The translations under genes were made by a program, and so were the position numbers. Source: a virus (lineage: Duplodnaviria > Heunggongvirae > Uroviricota > Caudoviricetes). From it: DNA of 8,598 nt. Every line of letters begins with the position of its first letter. Position 1 is the first letter of the stretch. Where the stretch lies: the IMG/VR virus record IMGVR_UViG_2802429224_000018. One strand, 5' to 3'. Below the pieces are notes generated by a model. The model did not search any database. It was not told the origin of the DNA and saw only the letters and a list, made by a program, of their open reading frames with translations. This document shows positions 2,159 to 8,595 of the stretch, piece after piece.

Positions 2159-3088
2159 TCAGTAGTTATGTATTGAAGGAGGTAATTCTTTATTCTTAAG
2201 TCTCATCCATGCGGAAAGATTCGTTGGTCCGTCTGGCTCATTGATATCAACATCTCGTGTGTGATTGATTAAAACGTCTCTCGCCATTCCGATAACATAC
2301 GAGAACTCATGACCATAGTCGTAGCATCTGCCGGAATAGTTCGATTGAATTTGTTTTAGCGCCGGATACAATTCGCGGAATAATGCCTGTGAGCGGTTGG
2401 CATAATCCCATAACCATACAAGACTGTTTGCTTCTTTTGCAGAAAGCTCGTTGGTTTTCTTATCTTGTTTGCCGATGAACTCTCCTTCAAGCGGAACGCG
2501 AGCAGCAAGTGACAGTGCTTCGGTAAACTGCTCCTCACTGATTTCTTTGTACGAACATCCAAAATGGGATTTCAGTGACGACCACATGGTGATCATCGCC
2601 TTAGCCTGTTTTTCTTTTGGCAGAGACTGACCGCGACTCATGACGAGTTGTTTAATGGCTTCCTGCTGTTCAGTGGTGATTTTACCCGGCAACGCCTTTT
2701 TAGCTTTGCGTGGGTTAACTACATGGCCTTTAGTCCAGTACTCGTATAGCACATCGTCACACTCTTCCTGATACTGGATTACCTTGTCGCGGATTTCAGG
2801 GCGGACTTTGTTAGGACTGATGGTTTGCAGCCAGCCAGCAAGTTTGCGAAGTGCCAAACAAATAATCTCACGGCACTGTTCATCACCAGGAAGCTGCATT
2901 GTGATTTTCACAATGGAGGTTTTAAACCGTTGCTTTATTTTCGTAAACTGTGAAGCCCAATCCATACCCATTCCCTCAACGATAGGTTTCATTGGGGTGT
3001 ACGGATCACCGTTGTGATTGACGACATAAAGCTCTGCGCCGTGGAATGGCACGTTGATAGTAGATACCGCTGTTGCTATACTTTTCAT
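2159..3088 (-). CDS. ant: Antirepressor Ant (P22 immI-type)
   Basis: 309-aa ORF, ATG at 3088-3086 with AGGAA 9 nt upstream, TGA at 2161-2159. It lies immediately downstream of an Arc-like gene and divergent from an Mnt-like gene, which is the canonical immI arrangement. The N-terminus ([23 protein letters not shown]...) is recalled as P22 Ant-like; P22 Ant is ~300 aa. Confidence 0.8.
3054..3082 (+). promoter_or_regulatory. Psar-like sigma70 promoter inside the first codons of ant, firing antisense
   Basis: TTGATA (3054-3059), a 17-bp spacer, then TATACT (3077-3082) on the plus strand. The predicted start near 3089 is directly opposite the ant start codon. Confidence 0.5.
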
Positions 3089-3160
3089 GTCAATATTTCC
3101 TAAGCCGATTTGTTGATACCGAAGCCCTGACTGTTACAGCAGTTGGGGCTTCACTGTTTT
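3089..3160 (+). ncRNA. sar: sar-like small antisense RNA complementary to the ant ribosome-binding site
   Basis: The Psar-like promoter upstream and an intrinsic terminator (hairpin 3121-3152 plus T-tract to 3160) bracket a ~70-nt transcript. It is fully complementary to the ant Shine-Dalgarno and leader (3089-3105). P22 sar is 68-69 nt with the same placement and orientation. Confidence 0.55.
3121..3160 (+). terminator. Intrinsic terminator of the sar-like RNA
   Basis: GAAGCCC (3121-3127) pairs with GGGCTTC (3146-3152); the stem can extend to ~13 bp with two G-U pairs around a 6-nt loop. It is followed by ACTGTTTTGATTTCTTT on the plus strand only; the minus-strand side is not U-rich. Confidence 0.55.
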
Positions 3161-3320: not shown

Positions 3321-3461
3321 TCACACTGTTACCCCCTCCCTCTTCAGGCTGTCCAGCACCCGTTTAATTACTTCTGCGCTGAATGAGCGACACTCTTCCT
3401 TTGCTTTTTCTTCAAGAATTTTTTCTAGCTTCTCTGGCATACGCAGTGTTTTTACCTTCAT
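3321..3461 (-). CDS. arc: Arc-like ribbon-helix-helix repressor (46 aa); not present in the supplied ORF track
   Basis: Manual translation of the minus strand: ATG at 3461-3459 with GGAGGA 4-5 nt upstream, TGA at 3323-3321. Product is MKVKTLRMPEKLEKILEEKAKEECRSFSAEVIKRVLDSLKREGVTV, which aligns with P22 Arc as recalled (NLRWPREVLDLVRKVAEENGRSVNSEIYQRVMESFKKEG): L-R-x-P, A-x-E-x-x-R-S, E-x-x-x-R-V and K-x-E-G are conserved. It is upstream of ant and divergent from mnt. Confidence 0.8.
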   Translation of the reverse strand: MKVKTLRMPEKLEKILEEKAKEECRSFSAEVIKRVLDSLKREGVTV

Positions 3462-3480: not shown

Positions 3481-3540
3481 GGTACGCATACATAGTATTT
3501 AGGTACGCATTGATAGTCAATAGATACCTACATATCCTGT
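3481..3540. promoter_or_regulatory. Divergent Pant/Pmnt promoter-operator region
   Basis: Minus strand (Pant): -35 TTGACT (plus 3520-3515), 17-bp spacer, -10 TACTAT (plus 3497-3492). Plus strand (Pmnt): -35 TTGATA (3510-3515), 17-bp spacer, -10 TATCCT (3533-3538). The two -35 boxes overlap within the palindromic core TTGATAGTCAA. Around it sits a 31-bp imperfect palindrome centred at 3515 (TAGGTA...TACCTA outer arms, 11 of 15 arm positions symmetric) and a 15-bp direct repeat GGTACGCATnnATAG at 3481-3495 and 3502-3516. Confidence 0.55.
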
Positions 3541-3566
3541 GGTAAAAAATTATTCAGGATGTGCCG

Positions 3567-3818
3567 ATGTCTGATCGTAAGTACAAAAACCCTCAAGTGA
3601 ATCTGAGGCTTCCTGTAGAGATAAAGGAACGTCTTATTGAACTGGCTGAGGCTAATTCTCGTTCATTAAATGCCGAGATGGTCGCGGCACTTGAAGCATG
3701 GACCGAAAAAAATAAACACATTCAAGCACTAGACCTTGCAACTATAGCATCACGATTGATAGATCTTGAACGCGATGTTGAGACGCTAAAGACCATGTAT
3801 GGTAAGGATGAAAAATGA
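3567..3818 (+). CDS. mnt: Mnt-like ribbon-helix-helix repressor (maintenance of lysogeny; represses Pant)
   Basis: ATG at 3567 with AGGA 7 nt upstream; the track's GTG at 3561 is too close to the SD. 83 aa, TGA at 3816-3818. NPQVNLRLPVEIKERLIELAEANSRSLNAEMVAALEAW aligns with P22 Mnt as recalled (PHFNFRMPMEVREKLKFRAEANGRSMNSELLQIVQDAL). Same length as P22 Mnt and divergent from arc. Confidence 0.85.
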   Translation: MSDRKYKNPQVNLRLPVEIKERLIELAEANSRSLNAEMVAALEAWTEKNKHIQALDLATIASRLIDLERDVETLKTMYGKDEK

Positions 3819-4024
3819 ACAAAAAACAGTTTATTAAGTCAACAACGTCAAGCAAGGAAGAGCTAGAGAAGGAGCTAAACTCCCTGAAATATGCTCTGTG
3901 CCTGGTTTACTCAAGACTGCCAATGGAAGATAAAAACGCCATTTACAATGAAATGATTAGCAGCCTTGATTTTAACGATAGAGACCTAGCATCCCACCTC
4001 AACAGCTTCCGCGTCCCTGAGTAA
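3815..4024 (+). CDS. Hypothetical 69-aa protein, translationally coupled to mnt
   Basis: Its ATG (3815-3817) overlaps the mnt TGA (3816-3818) in an ATGA junction; AAGGA 6 nt upstream; TAA at 4022-4024. Predicted soluble and helical; I recognise no family. Confidence 0.6.
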   Translation: MNKKQFIKSTTSSKEELEKELNSLKYALCLVYSRLPMEDKNAIYNEMISSLDFNDRDLASHLNSFRVPE

Positions 4025-4184
4025 TTCTGTTGCGGATTTGCTTCTTGCGGTGGTTTAAGCTGGAGAGCTTGGCTTCTGCTTCTGATATTTGTGCATCAAG
4101 ATCTTTAAGCTCAAGATCTGAAAGTCGCTGGTCAAGCAAGGTTTGGTTCAACTCAATGTTGTTCAGGCGTTCTTCTATGGTCAT
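3999..4184 (-). CDS. Hypothetical 61-aa charged coiled-coil protein
   Basis: ATG at 4184-4182 with AAGGTG ~5 nt upstream. Heptad-like, Leu/Glu/Asp/Lys-rich sequence (LNNIELNQTLLDQRLSDLELKDLDAQISEAEAKL). Its 3' end overlaps the 3' end of the 3815-4024 ORF by 26 nt. Could be a chance ORF. Confidence 0.35.
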   Translation of the reverse strand: MTIEERLNNIELNQTLLDQRLSDLELKDLDAQISEAEAKLSSLNHRKKQIRNRITQGRGSC

Positions 4185-4209
4185 ATTGTCACCTTAGTGG
4201 GAGGTTGGT

Positions 4210-4509
4210 GTGAAGCGATGGGTTATAGGTGCATTCTGTTTTCTAATTAGTGGTCTTGCACAATCGCAAGATAAGGATCTGAAATTTGCTAACGACATGT
4301 TAGTTACAGCTAAAGTTGCTGGCATGTGTGGAACATTTAAACAAATGTTTGCTTTTCAAGAAGCAACCCAGATGCCAGGCGGAGATGAATTTATTGAACG
4401 TTTTTTGAATACGGAAATTTCTCGCCTAGGGATGTCACTTCAAGAGTTCATGAAGTTGTGCACAGATTCTATAGAGTCATACAATAAATTAAAAAGGATG
4501 TCAGAATAG
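4210..4509 (+). CDS. Hypothetical secreted (signal-peptide) protein, 99 aa
   Basis: GTG start at 4210 with GGGAGG 5 nt upstream. N-terminus MKR-WVIGAFCFLISGLAQS-QDK has the n/h/c organisation of a Sec signal peptide; the mature part (~80 aa) is helical with two Cys. TAG at 4507-4509. No recognisable family. Confidence 0.6.
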   Translation: MKRWVIGAFCFLISGLAQSQDKDLKFANDMLVTAKVAGMCGTFKQMFAFQEATQMPGGDEFIERFLNTEISRLGMSLQEFMKLCTDSIESYNKLKRMSE

Positions 4510-4523
4510 CCATCCATGGCTAT
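4506..4523. repeat. Perfect inverted repeat ATAGCCAT-cc-ATGGCTAT (8-bp arms)
   Basis: Read directly from the sequence. It overlaps the stop codon of the 4210-4509 ORF and sits just upstream of the SD of the mini-ORF, between the convergent accessory cassette and the gp16-like gene. Confidence 0.35.
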
Positions 4524-4535
4524 CTGGAGGTTAAT

Positions 4536-4604
4536 ATGGTAACAATCGGTTGGATTATTGTTGCCCTGCTTGTTGCTCTGTGGGCAAAGAATCGTTACTA
4601 CTGA
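4536..4604 (+). CDS. Candidate 22-aa hydrophobic mini-protein ([22 protein letters not shown]); not in the ORF track
   Basis: ATG at 4536 preceded by GGAGG with a 6-nt spacer; a single predicted transmembrane helix with a basic/aromatic C-terminus; TGA at 4602-4604. Caveat: its last 50 nt are antisense to the 3' end of the gp16-like gene, and antisense of Gln/Glu-rich coding sequence tends to look hydrophobic. Confidence 0.25.
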   Translation: MVTIGWIIVALLVALWAKNRYY

Positions 4605-6723
4605 GAAAAGCGACAATACCAACGCGGGCTAGATTTTTCTTCTCGTCCGCTGATAGCGTATTTACCCAATCCCTATATGGTTTCACTTTCTGCATTGAAG
4701 CATCCACCGATTTCCTAGAGGCTGGGGTGCTGGCGTGACCTGCGGCAATCCTTTTTGAGAGATTTTTAAAAGCCGGAGATGCTATTAATTCATCAGCGGC
4801 AGCCATTCTTGAGTTTTTACCAGAACGGAGGAGGCTAAAGAGTACCCCTGCCGTACCGGCTCCAGGCGCTCCAATGGCTGTGGTTAGCCCTTCTGCTTTA
4901 GCCACGTCTTTTCCTATTCCATATATACGCCCAAGCATTCCCTTCTCTCCTGCGAACTGATTCATCATCCGGTCAATTTGAGAGGAGGAATACACCTTCT
5001 CGCTGCCCACCCTTTGCATGCCAGAAGCCACCTCATAGATGTTTCTCAACCTACGCGTAGCCGGATAGCCAATTGCCCGGCTCAATGCCTGCATATTTGA
5101 TTTGTTTCTTGATAGCCCTTCATACCACTTAACAAACCCAGGAACACCAAGTGACTGCCCGGGAGATTTAGCGAACGTAGTGAAAGCCCTATTCATTGCG
5201 GTGGCAACAGCTGGTTGCACCATGTCATCAGGAAGATTTGAAACTAGGCGACGGAAGTCACCTCCCTTTCCTTGAGACATATCGACGATAGCTTGCTGTA
5301 ATTGCGGCACTATTCCTTTATCCAAGTCTCTGCCAAGATTTTGAACAGCGGCTGCCTGTACTGCGAATCTCTTTCTCCCGATCTCTCTAGCTAAATTCCA
5401 TGTATCCTCTGCACCATATTTGGCAGCAGCGGCTCCCTGATCTTGTATCAGTGCGCTTTCAATAATTCCAAGGTGCCGAGCGTCGATGCCGCTATATGGC
5501 CCTTTATCCATCTCTTTGCCAAGAGCCCTTCCAACCTGTCGTCGAACTGCATCAAGAAGACCATAAGTCGGGGCGGTGTTTGGGTCTATTTGTTCCAAGG
5601 TCTTTGACAGTTGAGGATATAGCGATTTTAGTTTTTCTAGCCCACCGACATCATCTGCAATATCCTCAATGGCGTTAGTGGTATGGGTGGTATCTACGGT
5701 AGCTCTTGTTGGAATTTTTGCTCTAATTTGATTGTATAGAGTGTCTTCTTGGCGCTTCAGGTTTGATCTTAACTCCTCATAAGAGCTTTTTACCTTTTGA
5801 TTGATAAAGTCCTTATCAACGCTCCCACCAAAATCATTAATAAATTTATCTGCCTGCTCTCCAAGCCTACTAATGGCCTCTCGCTGTGCGTGGAACAGTT
5901 TATTCCCTGGGGTTGCAGCTAAAGCATTTTCAAACGCGCGGTAAGAAGGGTTGCTGGAGTACATGCCGGGAGTTAAGGCATCTTCCATCCCAAGATTGCG
6001 GGCGGCCTGTAGCACAGAATCATCTGGTGAAACAGCTTTCGCGAGAGCATTTAAACCAGATCTGTTTCCTGTTATTGGATTCACATCTGTAGCTTTCGTT
6101 GCAACCCTCGCCATTCCACTAAGTTCAGATGCCTGAGACATTTCTGCCGATGGAGGCTTAAACCTCTTCGTAACCGCACTGGCTGCTTTGCTAATCACTG
6201 GAGATGCCAATTCAGCAATTGGACCAGCGGCAGCACCTATAGCCGCCCCTGTAGTTACATTGCCACCGGTTCCGTTAGCAACAACACCACCTTCAACAGC
6301 GCCAAGCCCTGCGGCGGCAGCCAGCCTTGCCGCCCCTTTCGGAACCTGAGAAATAATCCCACCACCACTAACAAATGGCGCTGCTTGTCCAACAAACTCA
6401 CCAACATCTTGTGCGGTTGATGGTTTTGCCGCTAACTTCTGCTGTAGAGACTGAATTGCGGCTTGCTCTTCTGGTGTCATATCCTGAAACAGGCCAACAC
6501 CTTTACCAATATCCATCAATCCACTGAGAACACCATACATAAAACGGTCGAAACCGTTAGCATTATTAACAACATTTTCCTGTCTGGAATTTTCCTCTGG
6601 CGAAACCAAAGGTGATTGCTGCTGTTCTGGTTGGGCATCAAGCACAAAACCATCAGGAAGCTGTGAGTTATCAGGCTGATTATCGAGAACAAAGCCTTCG
6701 GGTAAACCTACATCGGTTGCCAT
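4555..6723 (-). CDS. Ejection (DNA-transfer) protein, P22 gp16-like
   Basis: 722-aa ORF, ATG at 6723 with AGGAA 7 nt upstream, TAA at 4557-4555. It is the third of three consecutive late genes directly upstream of the immI module, matching the P22 order 7-20-16-(sieA)-mnt-arc-ant-9. Ala/Gly-rich internal stretches. The start overlaps the preceding gene's stop by 16 nt. Confidence 0.75.
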
Positions 6724-8051
6724 TGTCCGTTCCTGTAAATGAGTTTCTGACCAGTTTTAGGGTTCGTTGCCGTCGCGCCTTCTGATATCCCACTTGGCGC
6801 AGCTTTTGTCTGCCCATTACCACCTTGTGGTGTAGGCTGCGCTGGGACATCGTCAAATAGCTTGGCCTTCCTTCTCCCTAAGCTTTTTTTCAGCCCCTGA
6901 GGAATAGTATCTCCATACGTATCCAGATATTCGTCTACCTGCTGGTTAAACTGCTGCCCCATAGCGTTGGCGTTAATTTTTGCTGCGTTAACAATGTTAT
7001 CCCTCGCTTCCTGTGACAAGCCATTCCCTGCATTAAGCTGGTCTACATATCCTTTTATCTGCCCCCATATGCCATCAGAGCGCATAACCTGAACCTGTTC
7101 ACCTTCGCGAACAACTGACTGAGGGTCGAGAGACTTCATGTAATTAAAGATAATCCCAAGTTGGGCAGCGCCAGTATTTACCTTGCTAAGGGCTTGCAGA
7201 GAGTTTGCCGCCGCTCTGACAGAGTTATAATTTTTGCCAAAATTGGTAATGTCAGAATTTAATCCCTTAATTAAGTCTGCTGACGGCTTACCTTTTTGCC
7301 CCAGCTCCATTAGCTTCAATCCCATCTCATCTGAGTGCATTTGTGCCCGCTGAGCCCTGTCTAGTTGAGCGTTCTGGATATTTGCCCATCCTCTCGCATT
7401 CTCCATATCAGCCTGACGGATGCTTTCATCCAATCGCCCTTTCTCAAGTTGGCGACCAACCATCTTATCCTGAACAGCAAACGCCTTTTCTGGTCCAAGC
7501 GCACCGAGAGACATAGTAGTCAGCATGTGTGATAGCTGCTCTGGATTCTGAATACCTGTCTGAATCATCCAGTCAGCATTCGCCCCCACGCGATTTAACC
7601 TGTCCTTGTTATCAGTAATGAATTTACTGTAGGCTTCCGGTCCCTGAGAAAGAGCGACGTTAGCCCTCATGGCTAAATCGCCCATATCGTTGCGTTGCTG
7701 CTCATTAAGACCGGAAAACGCCTGTTGTGCCTGTGTAACAAACGCTGGATTTTCCTGGGCAAACTTAAATAGTCCCGATGGATCACCAGAAGCCCATGCA
7801 TCAGCGTGAACCTTATTGAACGCATTAATCGCTTTCTGTTGCTGTTCCTGCTTATAAATATCAGCAACTCCAGCCAGACCACGTAACGCGGTCAGACCAA
7901 CGTTATTTGCACCTGAGCGAGCCAATTCATTGTTTTCGCGGATCAGACCAAGCGTTGCGTTAATGTCGCTTGCCTTTGGCGCATTCTCATTTTGCGTACC
8001 GATGCCAGCCAGAAAACCACCAGAATTAATACCCTGTTGCCACGTAGCCAT
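6708..8051 (-). CDS. Ejection (DNA-transfer) protein, P22 gp20-like
   Basis: 447-aa ORF (P22 gp20 is ~470 aa), ATG at 8051 with AAGGGG 7 nt upstream, TAG at 6710-6708. Middle gene of the three-gene ejection cluster. Confidence 0.75.
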
Positions 8052-8061
8052 TGATTACCCC

Positions 8062-8595
8062 TTAAAACAACGAGCCAAGCAATCCGATACCAGCACCAAT
8101 GCCAGCGCCCCAAGGTGTTGATGTTCCCAAAAGGCTGGCAAGACCTGCACCGGCAATCGCACCGGACGTTCCGCCACTAATTGCTGTCTGAAGACTTGAT
8201 GGTTTGTTGGCGTTAGCAGCGGCAAGTGCTGCGCTTTGCTGTGCAATGCTACTCATGTTGTTGGCGTATGTCTGCCCAGCGTTTGCCTGACCTTGCAACG
8301 CACCAAGGCCAATGTTTGCCAGATTGTTGTAGTTGCTCATTTGTCCAGATAGCCATTGCTGACCAAGCGTTGGTGCGATTGTTGCTAACTGATTACTGGT
8401 TGCGGTGGAACCCAATCCACCTGTTGCTTCCGCTGCAGCCAGACTCTGATAGCGAGCCTGACCTGCAAGGTCTTTATACTGCTGAGAGTTGTAATACTGG
8501 TTAAGCGCCTGACCTTGCCCTTCCAGAGACGATAAGTTCTCGAGGCTGCCGACATACTTCTCAGCCAGAGGAGTAAACGGTTTCAGGTTGTTCAT
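8062..8595 (-). CDS. Ejection (DNA-transfer) protein, P22 gp7-like; N-terminus at the window edge
   Basis: 177-aa ORF from the ATG at 8595-8593, TAA at 8064-8062. Gln/Asn/Ala/Gly-rich low-complexity sequence with a hydrophobic Gly/Ala/Leu C-terminal tail (GAIAGAGLASLLGTSTPWGAGIGAGIGLLGSLF), consistent with a membrane-inserting ejection protein. The reading frame is still open at 8598, so the true start may lie outside the window. Confidence 0.65.
   Translation of the reverse strand: MNNLKPFTPLAEKYVGSLENLSSLEGQGQALNQYYNSQQYKDLAGQARYQSLAAAEATGGLGSTATSNQLATIAPTLGQQWLSGQMSNYNNLANIGLGALQGQANAGQTYANNMSSIAQQSAALAAANANKPSSLQTAISGGTSGAIAGAGLASLLGTSTPWGAGIGAGIGLLGSLF

Follow-up and report, generated by a model that had tools for sequence, protein, structure and literature searches.

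The sieA slot of a P22-like phage carries a putative secreted protein of a large uncharacterised family

The region between the maintenance repressor gene mnt and the ejection-protein gene 16 was analysed in 8,598 nucleotides (nt) of DNA from a P22-like virus (IMG/VR record IMGVR_UViG_2802429224_000018); this whole stretch of DNA is referred to here as the window. Positions 3815–4604 hold four small open reading frames (ORFs), named orf69, orf61, orf99 and the mini-ORF, and all four are present where a preliminary description of the same DNA had placed them. That description had treated them as one accessory cassette. Comparison of related loci indicates that the stretch is not a single cassette: it consists of three independent units, orf69, orf61 and orf99, and makes up the half of the P22-type 'ant moron' (the accessory region of immI) that lies nearer to gene 16. 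On the same comparisons orf99 is the true occupant of the sieA slot and forms a single-gene cassette. As a whole, the stretch is best explained as a three-unit ant moron in which orf99 would act as a lysogen-expressed periplasmic factor, an explanation that we hold with about even confidence.

Villafane et al. (2008, PMC2629481) portrayed the ant moron of P22-like phages as a non-essential and variable region in rapid flux; hkcB, hkcC and orf59a are among its genes without a known function. orf69, orf61 and the orf99 family do not appear in that paper, nor, in its available portions, does a shared junction of Shine-Dalgarno sequence (SD) and GTG start serving several cargoes. The hotspot itself is already known, and orf99 is a new cargo of this known hotspot. 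The characterised occupant of the slot is SieA, for which exclusion has been demonstrated; its gene is present in about a third of sequenced P22-like phages (PMC10883804).

The stretch had been assigned to the sieA position, and the gene order of P22, mnt, orf59a, (hkcC), sieA and gene 16, agrees with this. The layouts are equivalent, with mnt-orf59a / hkcC / sieA / 16 in P22 and mnt-orf69 / orf61 / orf99 / 16 in the window. orf99 (4210–4509, plus strand) encodes a predicted 99-amino-acid (aa) precursor of a small secreted protein, and its GTG start lies 5 bases after GGGAGG. With P22 SieA (PF26849) it shares the slot between mnt and gene 16, the strand of mnt, the convergent orientation towards gene 16 and the SD-GTG start GGAGGTTGGTGTG. 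Both proteins are envelope-targeted, orf99 by prediction, and both genes face away from a small gene on the late strand, hkcC in P22 and orf61 in the window.

The shared translation-initiation junction GGGAGGTTGGTGTG, which comprises the SD and the GTG (4199..4212, plus strand), marks the 5′ boundary of the cargo; the same 13–14 nt stand before P22 sieA. With at most 2 mismatches, the GTG of GGAGGTTGGTGTG is the start of the gene adjoining gene 16 in 41 loci. The genes that begin there have 13 distinct N-termini, which represent about 10 unrelated families, and 9 of the 10 carry a signal peptide or transmembrane segments. P22 sieA starts at the same GGAGGTTGGTGTG GTG behind the same leader, and its annotated promoter lies within this leader, 31–61 nt upstream of the sieA start. 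The window keeps just the last 13 nt of the P22 leader (SD and GTG), abutting the orf61 start, and a spacer of 25 nt (4185–4209) parts the ATG of orf61 from the GTG of orf99. The full P22-type leader precedes orf99 in two other loci (L023 and L047). Consensus and terminator scans of the window found neither promoter-like nor terminator-like sites flanking orf99; relatives have the P22 sieA-type leader. In P22 (L056, NC_002371) hkcC, at 13861–14226 on the plus strand, is an ORF of about 121 aa on the late strand that faces away from sieA and is unannotated in RefSeq. The first hkcC codons fall within the annotated sieA promoter/leader, and this partly explains the strong conservation of the leader.

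The 3′ boundary of the cassette was located by comparison with three loci, L033, L119 and L121. It is a perfect 8+8 palindrome, ATAGCCATCCATGGCTAT (4506..4523), which overlaps the orf99 stop codon. In L033 similarity to the window stops immediately after ...GCCATCCATGGC, and in L119 and L121 another cassette joins the same gene-16 flank at the near-identical palindrome TAGCCATCCTTGGCTA. No T-run follows ATAGCCATCCATGGCTAT on either strand, and it is therefore not a typical intrinsic terminator.

The preliminary description had called orf99 a signal-peptide protein, and it is indeed predicted to be secreted in addition to starting at the SD-GTG of P22 sieA. The predicted signal peptide spans approximately residues 1–17/19 and leaves a mature part of about 80 aa. 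For the Kapi1 homologue the depositors' DeepTMHMM note reads 'signal 1-22, outside'. At E<=1e-3 a full profile search recovered 267 clusters, defined at 50% identity, and 177 of these had E<=1e-10; a word-indexed search recovered just 10. Members are about 100 aa long, and every one is named 'hypothetical' in its source annotation. An N-terminal hydrophobic region is seen in 84 of 89 members and exactly two cysteines in the mature part in 87 of 89. In a 26-sequence alignment G38, C40, Q50, G58, R64, E69, R72 and C84 are invariant; invariant residues are likewise present over 90 sequences, at a mean column identity of 32%, and the alignments also contain a conserved TKMPGGDEF loop and conserved charged residues. 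An AlphaFold2 model of the mature protein, built with 90 sequences, predicts helices at 2–36, 41–55 and 60–81 (predicted local distance difference test score, pLDDT, 94.5; predicted template modelling score, pTM, 0.76). Tandem duplications were found for the members P0061, P0185 and P0191. Judged from these alignments, orf99 is a real gene of a large uncharacterised family.

None of the stretch's products had been assigned to a recognisable family, and profile searches bear this out: none of the four ORFs has an above-threshold match to Pfam SIEA or to another family of Pfam, NCBIfam or PADLOC. Against the PADLOC-DB defence profiles the ORFs of the stretch returned just weak partial coiled-coil or low-score matches, the best (E=7e-4) covering 43 residues of orf61. 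A Pfam search with 26 members of the orf99 family gave zero matches, as did orf99 itself against NCBIfam, PADLOC and BFVD, and no significant match was found among PDB sequences. Comparison of the modelled fold with solved structures, including Spackle-like and other periplasmic inhibitors, found no similarity. A literature search with the protein accessions of the family and with hkcB returned nothing relevant except PMC2629481.

orf99 fails every test of the SieA family but position, and the earlier statement that no ORF here resembles SieA holds. The SIEA profile, including its FxRYPxEAxxFNK motif, was unmatched by any ORF of the stretch, and orf99 had no tblastn match in the sieA region of P22. 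Whereas SieA is 164–212 aa long and crosses the membrane several times, orf99 is predicted, from sequence and model, to be secreted in soluble, helical form after its signal peptide is cleaved off. The only hydrophobic region of orf99 is N-terminal and of the signal type; the highest 19-residue hydropathy value is 1.01, with zero windows above the cut-off of 1.6, and P22 SieA has four such windows. The two differ further in that the orf99 family extends beyond P22-like phages and that the sieA promoter contained in the P22 leader is missing from the window.

The distribution of the family was examined by a scan of IMG/VR, which gave 44 loci. P22-like ant morons account for 36 of these, all with the member on the mnt strand: in 13 it adjoins gene 16, as in the window, in 22 it stands directly after mnt, and one (L091) is the orthologous arrangement. 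Where the member directly follows mnt, the next gene is a lipoprotein gene or orf61, and at least five types of gene 16 adjoin. In one such locus (L057) a paralogue, 48% identical to orf99, begins at an ATGA overlap with the mnt stop; L069 is laid out likewise. In L091, at about 50% identity, mnt is followed by an extra gene, then by an orf69-like gene and an orf61-like gene that converges on it and overlaps it; next come an orf99-like gene, which faces away from the orf61-like one, and gene 16. In P22-like Morganella prophages (L060–L062, 7001–8074) the slot between mnt and gene 16 holds three consecutive genes, an orf99-like one and then those for a 104-aa signal-peptide protein and a 154-aa lipoprotein; in L060 and L061 a homologue of P22 orf59a follows mnt.

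Outside the P22-like phages, members follow an mnt-like gene in siphovirus tail clusters (L094, L097) and lie near cI/repressor and recombination genes of Pseudomonas-type prophages (L109–L111). Another stands between Mu gp45 and gp46 (L063), two adjoin lysis genes (L066, L113), two are on integrase-bearing islands (L049, L068), and one is in a Sulfurimonas chromosome in an apparently non-phage context (L065). As far as these loci indicate, the orf99 family is a recurrent prophage cargo that is often placed directly after mnt. The orf99 allele of the window is rare, being present in 7 of 5426 complete Escherichia coli (E. coli) genomes.

The orf69/orf61 pair is 97–100% identical in 48 related loci, except in four diverged loci (L007–L010). 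Over the same 48 loci the mnt beside the pair is 35–98% identical to that of the window, and the distance between orf61 and gene 16 varies between 25 nt and about 2.5 kb. A true SieA (Pfam SIEA, 212 aa) comes after the pair in L009 and L010. The possibility that orf69/orf61 replaces sieA was considered and rejected, since a true sieA adjoins the pair in these two loci. It is on this point that the single-cassette view fails, as orf69/orf61 is a conserved module that occurs with many cargoes, true SieA among them. The module is present in 127 genomes, and 74 of the 127 hold at least 80% of it.

The suggestion that the locus is a variable hotspot was confirmed by the relatives, in which the cargo between mnt and gene 16 differs. 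Besides orf99 and sieA, the slot holds a 60-aa signal-peptide protein, lipoproteins, a P63C-domain protein, a Panacea antitoxin pair, a HicA-like toxin, or a 67-aa membrane-anchored protein with zinc-ribbon-like cysteine pairs. Some of the features expected of a moron are found here: a variable, dispensable insert between conserved late genes, whose content varies over about 50 loci, and an opposite strand with distinct guanine-plus-cytosine (GC) content, orf99 opposing genes 7, 20 and 16 with 37.7% against 48%. Toxin-antitoxin-like cargo is exemplified by L002 (Emek), with a SocA/Panacea-domain protein and its partner at 3924–4797 (minus strand), and by L033, with a HicA-like ORF recognised by eye at 4406–4603 (minus strand). 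In L005 (3786–3870) and in the same region of L020, orf61 is adjoined by a decayed orf99 5′ end, about 75 nt long and broken by a frameshift and a stop; this remnant is followed by the 67-aa membrane-anchored ORF with zinc-ribbon-like cysteine pairs and then by a terminator. The decayed end beside orf61 suggests that in loci of this type the orf61/orf99 arrangement came first.

orf69 (69 aa, 3815–4024, plus strand; function unassigned) had been described as coupled to mnt, and its ATG does overlap the mnt stop codon as ATGA, which suggests translational coupling. The window was compared with the diverged copies in L007 and L009, which have 75–80% amino-acid identity to it. The ratio of non-synonymous to synonymous substitution rates (dN/dS) of orf69 is 0.04–0.13 in its own frame; in the frames without shared wobble positions of this region it is about 1 or higher. 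orf69 matches phrog_16466 (E=5e-51), a phrog of unknown function, and its homologues form 46 protein clusters found exclusively in E. coli or Salmonella. L091 has an orthologue, 50% identical, at the same location. P22 orf59a was considered as a homologue and rejected, zero similarity being found by tblastn. By the substitution pattern, orf69 is a real gene under strong purifying selection.

The junction of mnt stop and next start (GAAAAATGAA; window 3810–3820, L057 6985–7020, L069 2658–2693) is common to orf69 and to the orf99-family paralogue. From this alignment of loci, GAAAAATGAA is a second cassette boundary, located at the site of the putative translational coupling.

orf61 (61 aa, 3999–4184, minus strand) encodes a coiled-coil protein on the strand of the late operon. 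Its 3′ end shares 26 nt with the convergent 3′ end of orf69, and its start faces that of orf99. In the comparison described above its dN/dS is 0.05–0.15, in its own frame only, and it matches phrog_7586 (E=3e-44), likewise of unknown function. It accompanies orf69 in all 48 of the 48 orf69-bearing loci, occurs without orf69 in further E. coli genomes, and has an orthologue in L091. orf61, too, is by these ratios a real gene under strong purifying selection. The stretch had been proposed as a candidate for a lysogen-expressed function; for orf61 this is not supported, as its position on the late-gene strand means that it is not an obvious lysogen-expressed gene. In relatives a terminator often precedes orf61, with the orf61 SD immediately after it, and with this layout orf61 would probably be read by antiterminated late transcription alone.

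The annotation of Kapi1 and some RefSeq genomes gives orf61 a length of 92 aa and the label 'XhlA' or 'hemolysin XhlA family' (L001 3729–4007 and L006 3600–3878, both minus strand). The likeness to the XhlA family (PF10779) amounts to a weak hit on the coiled-coil portion of that profile (14.1 bits, E=0.056), below the cut-off of 34.7 bits, and no hydrophobic or membrane segment was found in the 61-aa sequence. The extra 31 N-terminal residues of the 92-aa form are antisense to an adjacent 60-aa gene and are unconserved; the label thus looks like an annotation artefact. A role for orf61 as XhlA haemolysin or holin partner was rejected on account of the sub-threshold match, the missing membrane segment and the over-extended RefSeq form.

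The hydrophobic mini-ORF (22 aa, 4536–4604, plus strand; SD GGAGG at 4526–4530) overlaps the stop codon and the last 16 codons of gene 16. It had been counted with the cargo. It is kept with the window-type gene 16 where orf99 has been replaced (L119, L121) and is missing where orf99 adjoins another type of gene 16 (L033). Membership in the cargo was rejected, since the mini-ORF follows the gene-16 allele when orf99 is swapped; from these loci it is probably not part of the cargo. Its 12 copies have three variable sites, one of which is W6S. Viewed as a candidate type I toxin or small membrane peptide, the mini-ORF has a good SD, but it always accompanies the gene-16 allele. L003 differs from the window and the other copies by a G-to-A change that produces V13I in the mini-ORF and also ends gene 16 prematurely (717 rather than 722 aa). 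The SD and start of the mini-ORF (GGAGGTTAATATG; window 4526–4604) resemble the junction GGAGGTTGGTGTG; a third junction may have persisted here, or an older cargo gene may have left a stump.

With regard to function, the following course is proposed for the lysogen. orf69 would be made together with the maintenance repressor, given that its start overlaps the mnt stop. As the P22 sieA promoter is absent from the window, lysogen transcription of orf99 would be read-through from Pmnt; a terminator scan of the window found no plus-strand terminator-like site between mnt and gene 16. The orf99 product would be exported by the Sec pathway, with cleavage of the signal peptide near A17–S19. The mature protein may then fold, as modelled, into a helical periplasmic protein of about 80 aa with its two cysteines oxidised in that compartment, and from there it would block an early step in the infection by a superinfecting phage.

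T4 Spackle and P1 Sim, both small and made with a signal peptide, counter incoming phage from within the periplasm. The likeness of orf99 to them is one of proposed mechanism type. That orf99 excludes superinfecting phage, as a functional analogue of SieA without kinship to it, is put forward tentatively, as rather less than an even prospect. Somewhat more doubtful still is the broader proposal that orf99 may be the first recognised member of a widespread periplasmic family of prophages that protects lysogens at the envelope and that, in P22-like phages, would be exchanged in the sieA slot along with other envelope proteins through recombination at the shared junction of ribosome-binding site and start codon.

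Several observations weigh against the periplasmic exclusion role. Profile, PDB and BFVD searches gave no homology of orf99 to known exclusion or defence proteins. Because the -35/-10 part of that leader in P22 sieA is missing from the window, expression depends on the assumed read-through. In RNA-seq of the Kapi1 lysogen mnt was not detected; the list of undetected genes does not include the homologues Kapi1_059–062, but spontaneous induction confounds this (PMC12922286). Phages that carry the family deliver their DNA by unrelated machines; other members lie on integrase-bearing islands or in an apparently non-phage chromosomal setting, and at least five types of gene 16 adjoin members. This spread argues against a lock onto the P22-type ejection protein and favours a more general periplasmic target. 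Close copies of orf99 adjoin the window-type gene 16 in 13 of 14 cases and, in reverse, 10 of 12 such gene 16 alleles adjoin orf99, for which adjacency suffices as an explanation. The idea that orf99 is a partner specific to the window-type gene 16 was rejected in view of the exceptions L033, L119 and L121 and of the mnt-linked paralogue with its at least five gene-16 types. On this comparison the association of the two is ordinary linkage.

Much of the same distribution could be attributed to a benefit for the host. orf99 might be a lysogenic-conversion factor that aids the host without excluding phage, either as a periplasmic inhibitor or immunity protein against wall-attacking enzymes (lysozymes, type VI effectors, bacteriocins) or as an envelope-stress factor. 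Family members come from Gamma-, Beta-, Alpha- and Epsilonproteobacteria and from Acidobacteria, and their settings include phages of three tail types, integrase-bearing islands and a chromosome. The tandem duplications of its members recall those of immunity genes, and the TKMPGGDEF loop with the charged residues would suit a binding surface. We regard this explanation as slightly less probable than exclusion.

A role in the phage cycle is improbable. Under it, orf69 would work with Mnt or modulate it, orf61 would be either a late protein or a device that tunes late transcription into the tailspike gene, and orf99 would be a periplasmic entry or lysis factor. The order orf69-orf61-orf99 is kept at about 50% identity in L091, and some members of the orf99 family adjoin lysis or baseplate genes. 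orf61 lies on the late strand, where the terminator-then-SD arrangement of relatives would confine its expression to antiterminated late transcription; according to PMC2629481, the ant moron may influence read-through into gene 9. However, all three genes are dispensable, being absent from P22 and most sequenced relatives, orf99 occurs in just 7 of 5426 complete E. coli genomes, and unrelated genes replace it beside the same gene 16.

A last reading, on which the DNA from mnt to gene 16 is AT-rich junk whose ORFs arose by chance or are left over from decay, is scarcely credible. Short ORFs are frequent in DNA of 41% GC, the mini-ORF is without independent support and decayed orf99 5′ ends occur in other loci. 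The confident model of orf99 (pLDDT 94.5) speaks against this reading, and for orf69, orf61 and orf99 it is already refuted by the frame-specific purifying selection on orf69 and orf61, the residues of orf99 invariant over 90 sequences and the retention of the trio at about 50% identity in L091.

The minus strand of the window is the end of a P22-like late operon. ORF and family searches identified the tailspike gene (1–1980), ant (2159–3088) and arc (3321–3461), all on the minus strand. The sar antisense RNA, a regulator of ant, is at 3090–3155 on the plus strand (Rfam RF00262, 62 bits, full length), and this match confirms that the P22-type immI region is complete. By consensus match only, a promoter-like site (9/12 matches; 3510..3538, plus strand) is found at the Pmnt position, overlapped by a divergent Pant-like site (9/12 matches; 3520–3492, minus strand). 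This arrangement between arc and mnt is that of the annotated overlapping Pmnt/Pant promoters of P22. mnt (3561..3818, plus strand; Pfam Arc, E=3e-10) encodes a ribbon-helix-helix maintenance repressor of the Arc/Mnt type and is the first gene of the plus-strand operon. By tblastn its product is 32% identical to P22 Mnt across 79 residues. The gene 16 homologue (4555..6723, minus strand) is a 722-aa ORF for an ejection protein, convergent with orf99 and identified through Pfam Phage_P22_gp16 in relatives; it is followed in the ORF list by gene 20 (6708–8051) and partial gene 7 (8062–8595), both on the minus strand.

The stretch had also been noted by eye as more AT-rich than the ejection genes, as would be expected of horizontally acquired cargo. 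The difference in composition is real: GC content is 41.0% over 3815–4604 and 37.7% within orf99, and it rises to 47.8% in gene 16 and 48.0% in gene 20. AT-richness is not peculiar to the stretch, however, as arc-mnt has 41.8% GC, ant 44.9% and the tailspike 42.0%.

The orf99 family is large and has no Pfam model, solved structure or literature, yet it recurs beside lysogeny genes in several types of phage. If orf99 excludes phage, its family would be a new one of prophage-encoded envelope protection proteins, and examples of such protection would be a blocked periplasmic step of phage DNA delivery or the inhibition of wall-degrading enzymes; otherwise the region would be an ordinary variable moron. 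At least ten unrelated cassettes, all beginning at one start site, supply the sieA slot, with nine of ten encoding membrane or secreted proteins, and the shared start-codon junction offers a concrete example of the exchange of phage cargo.

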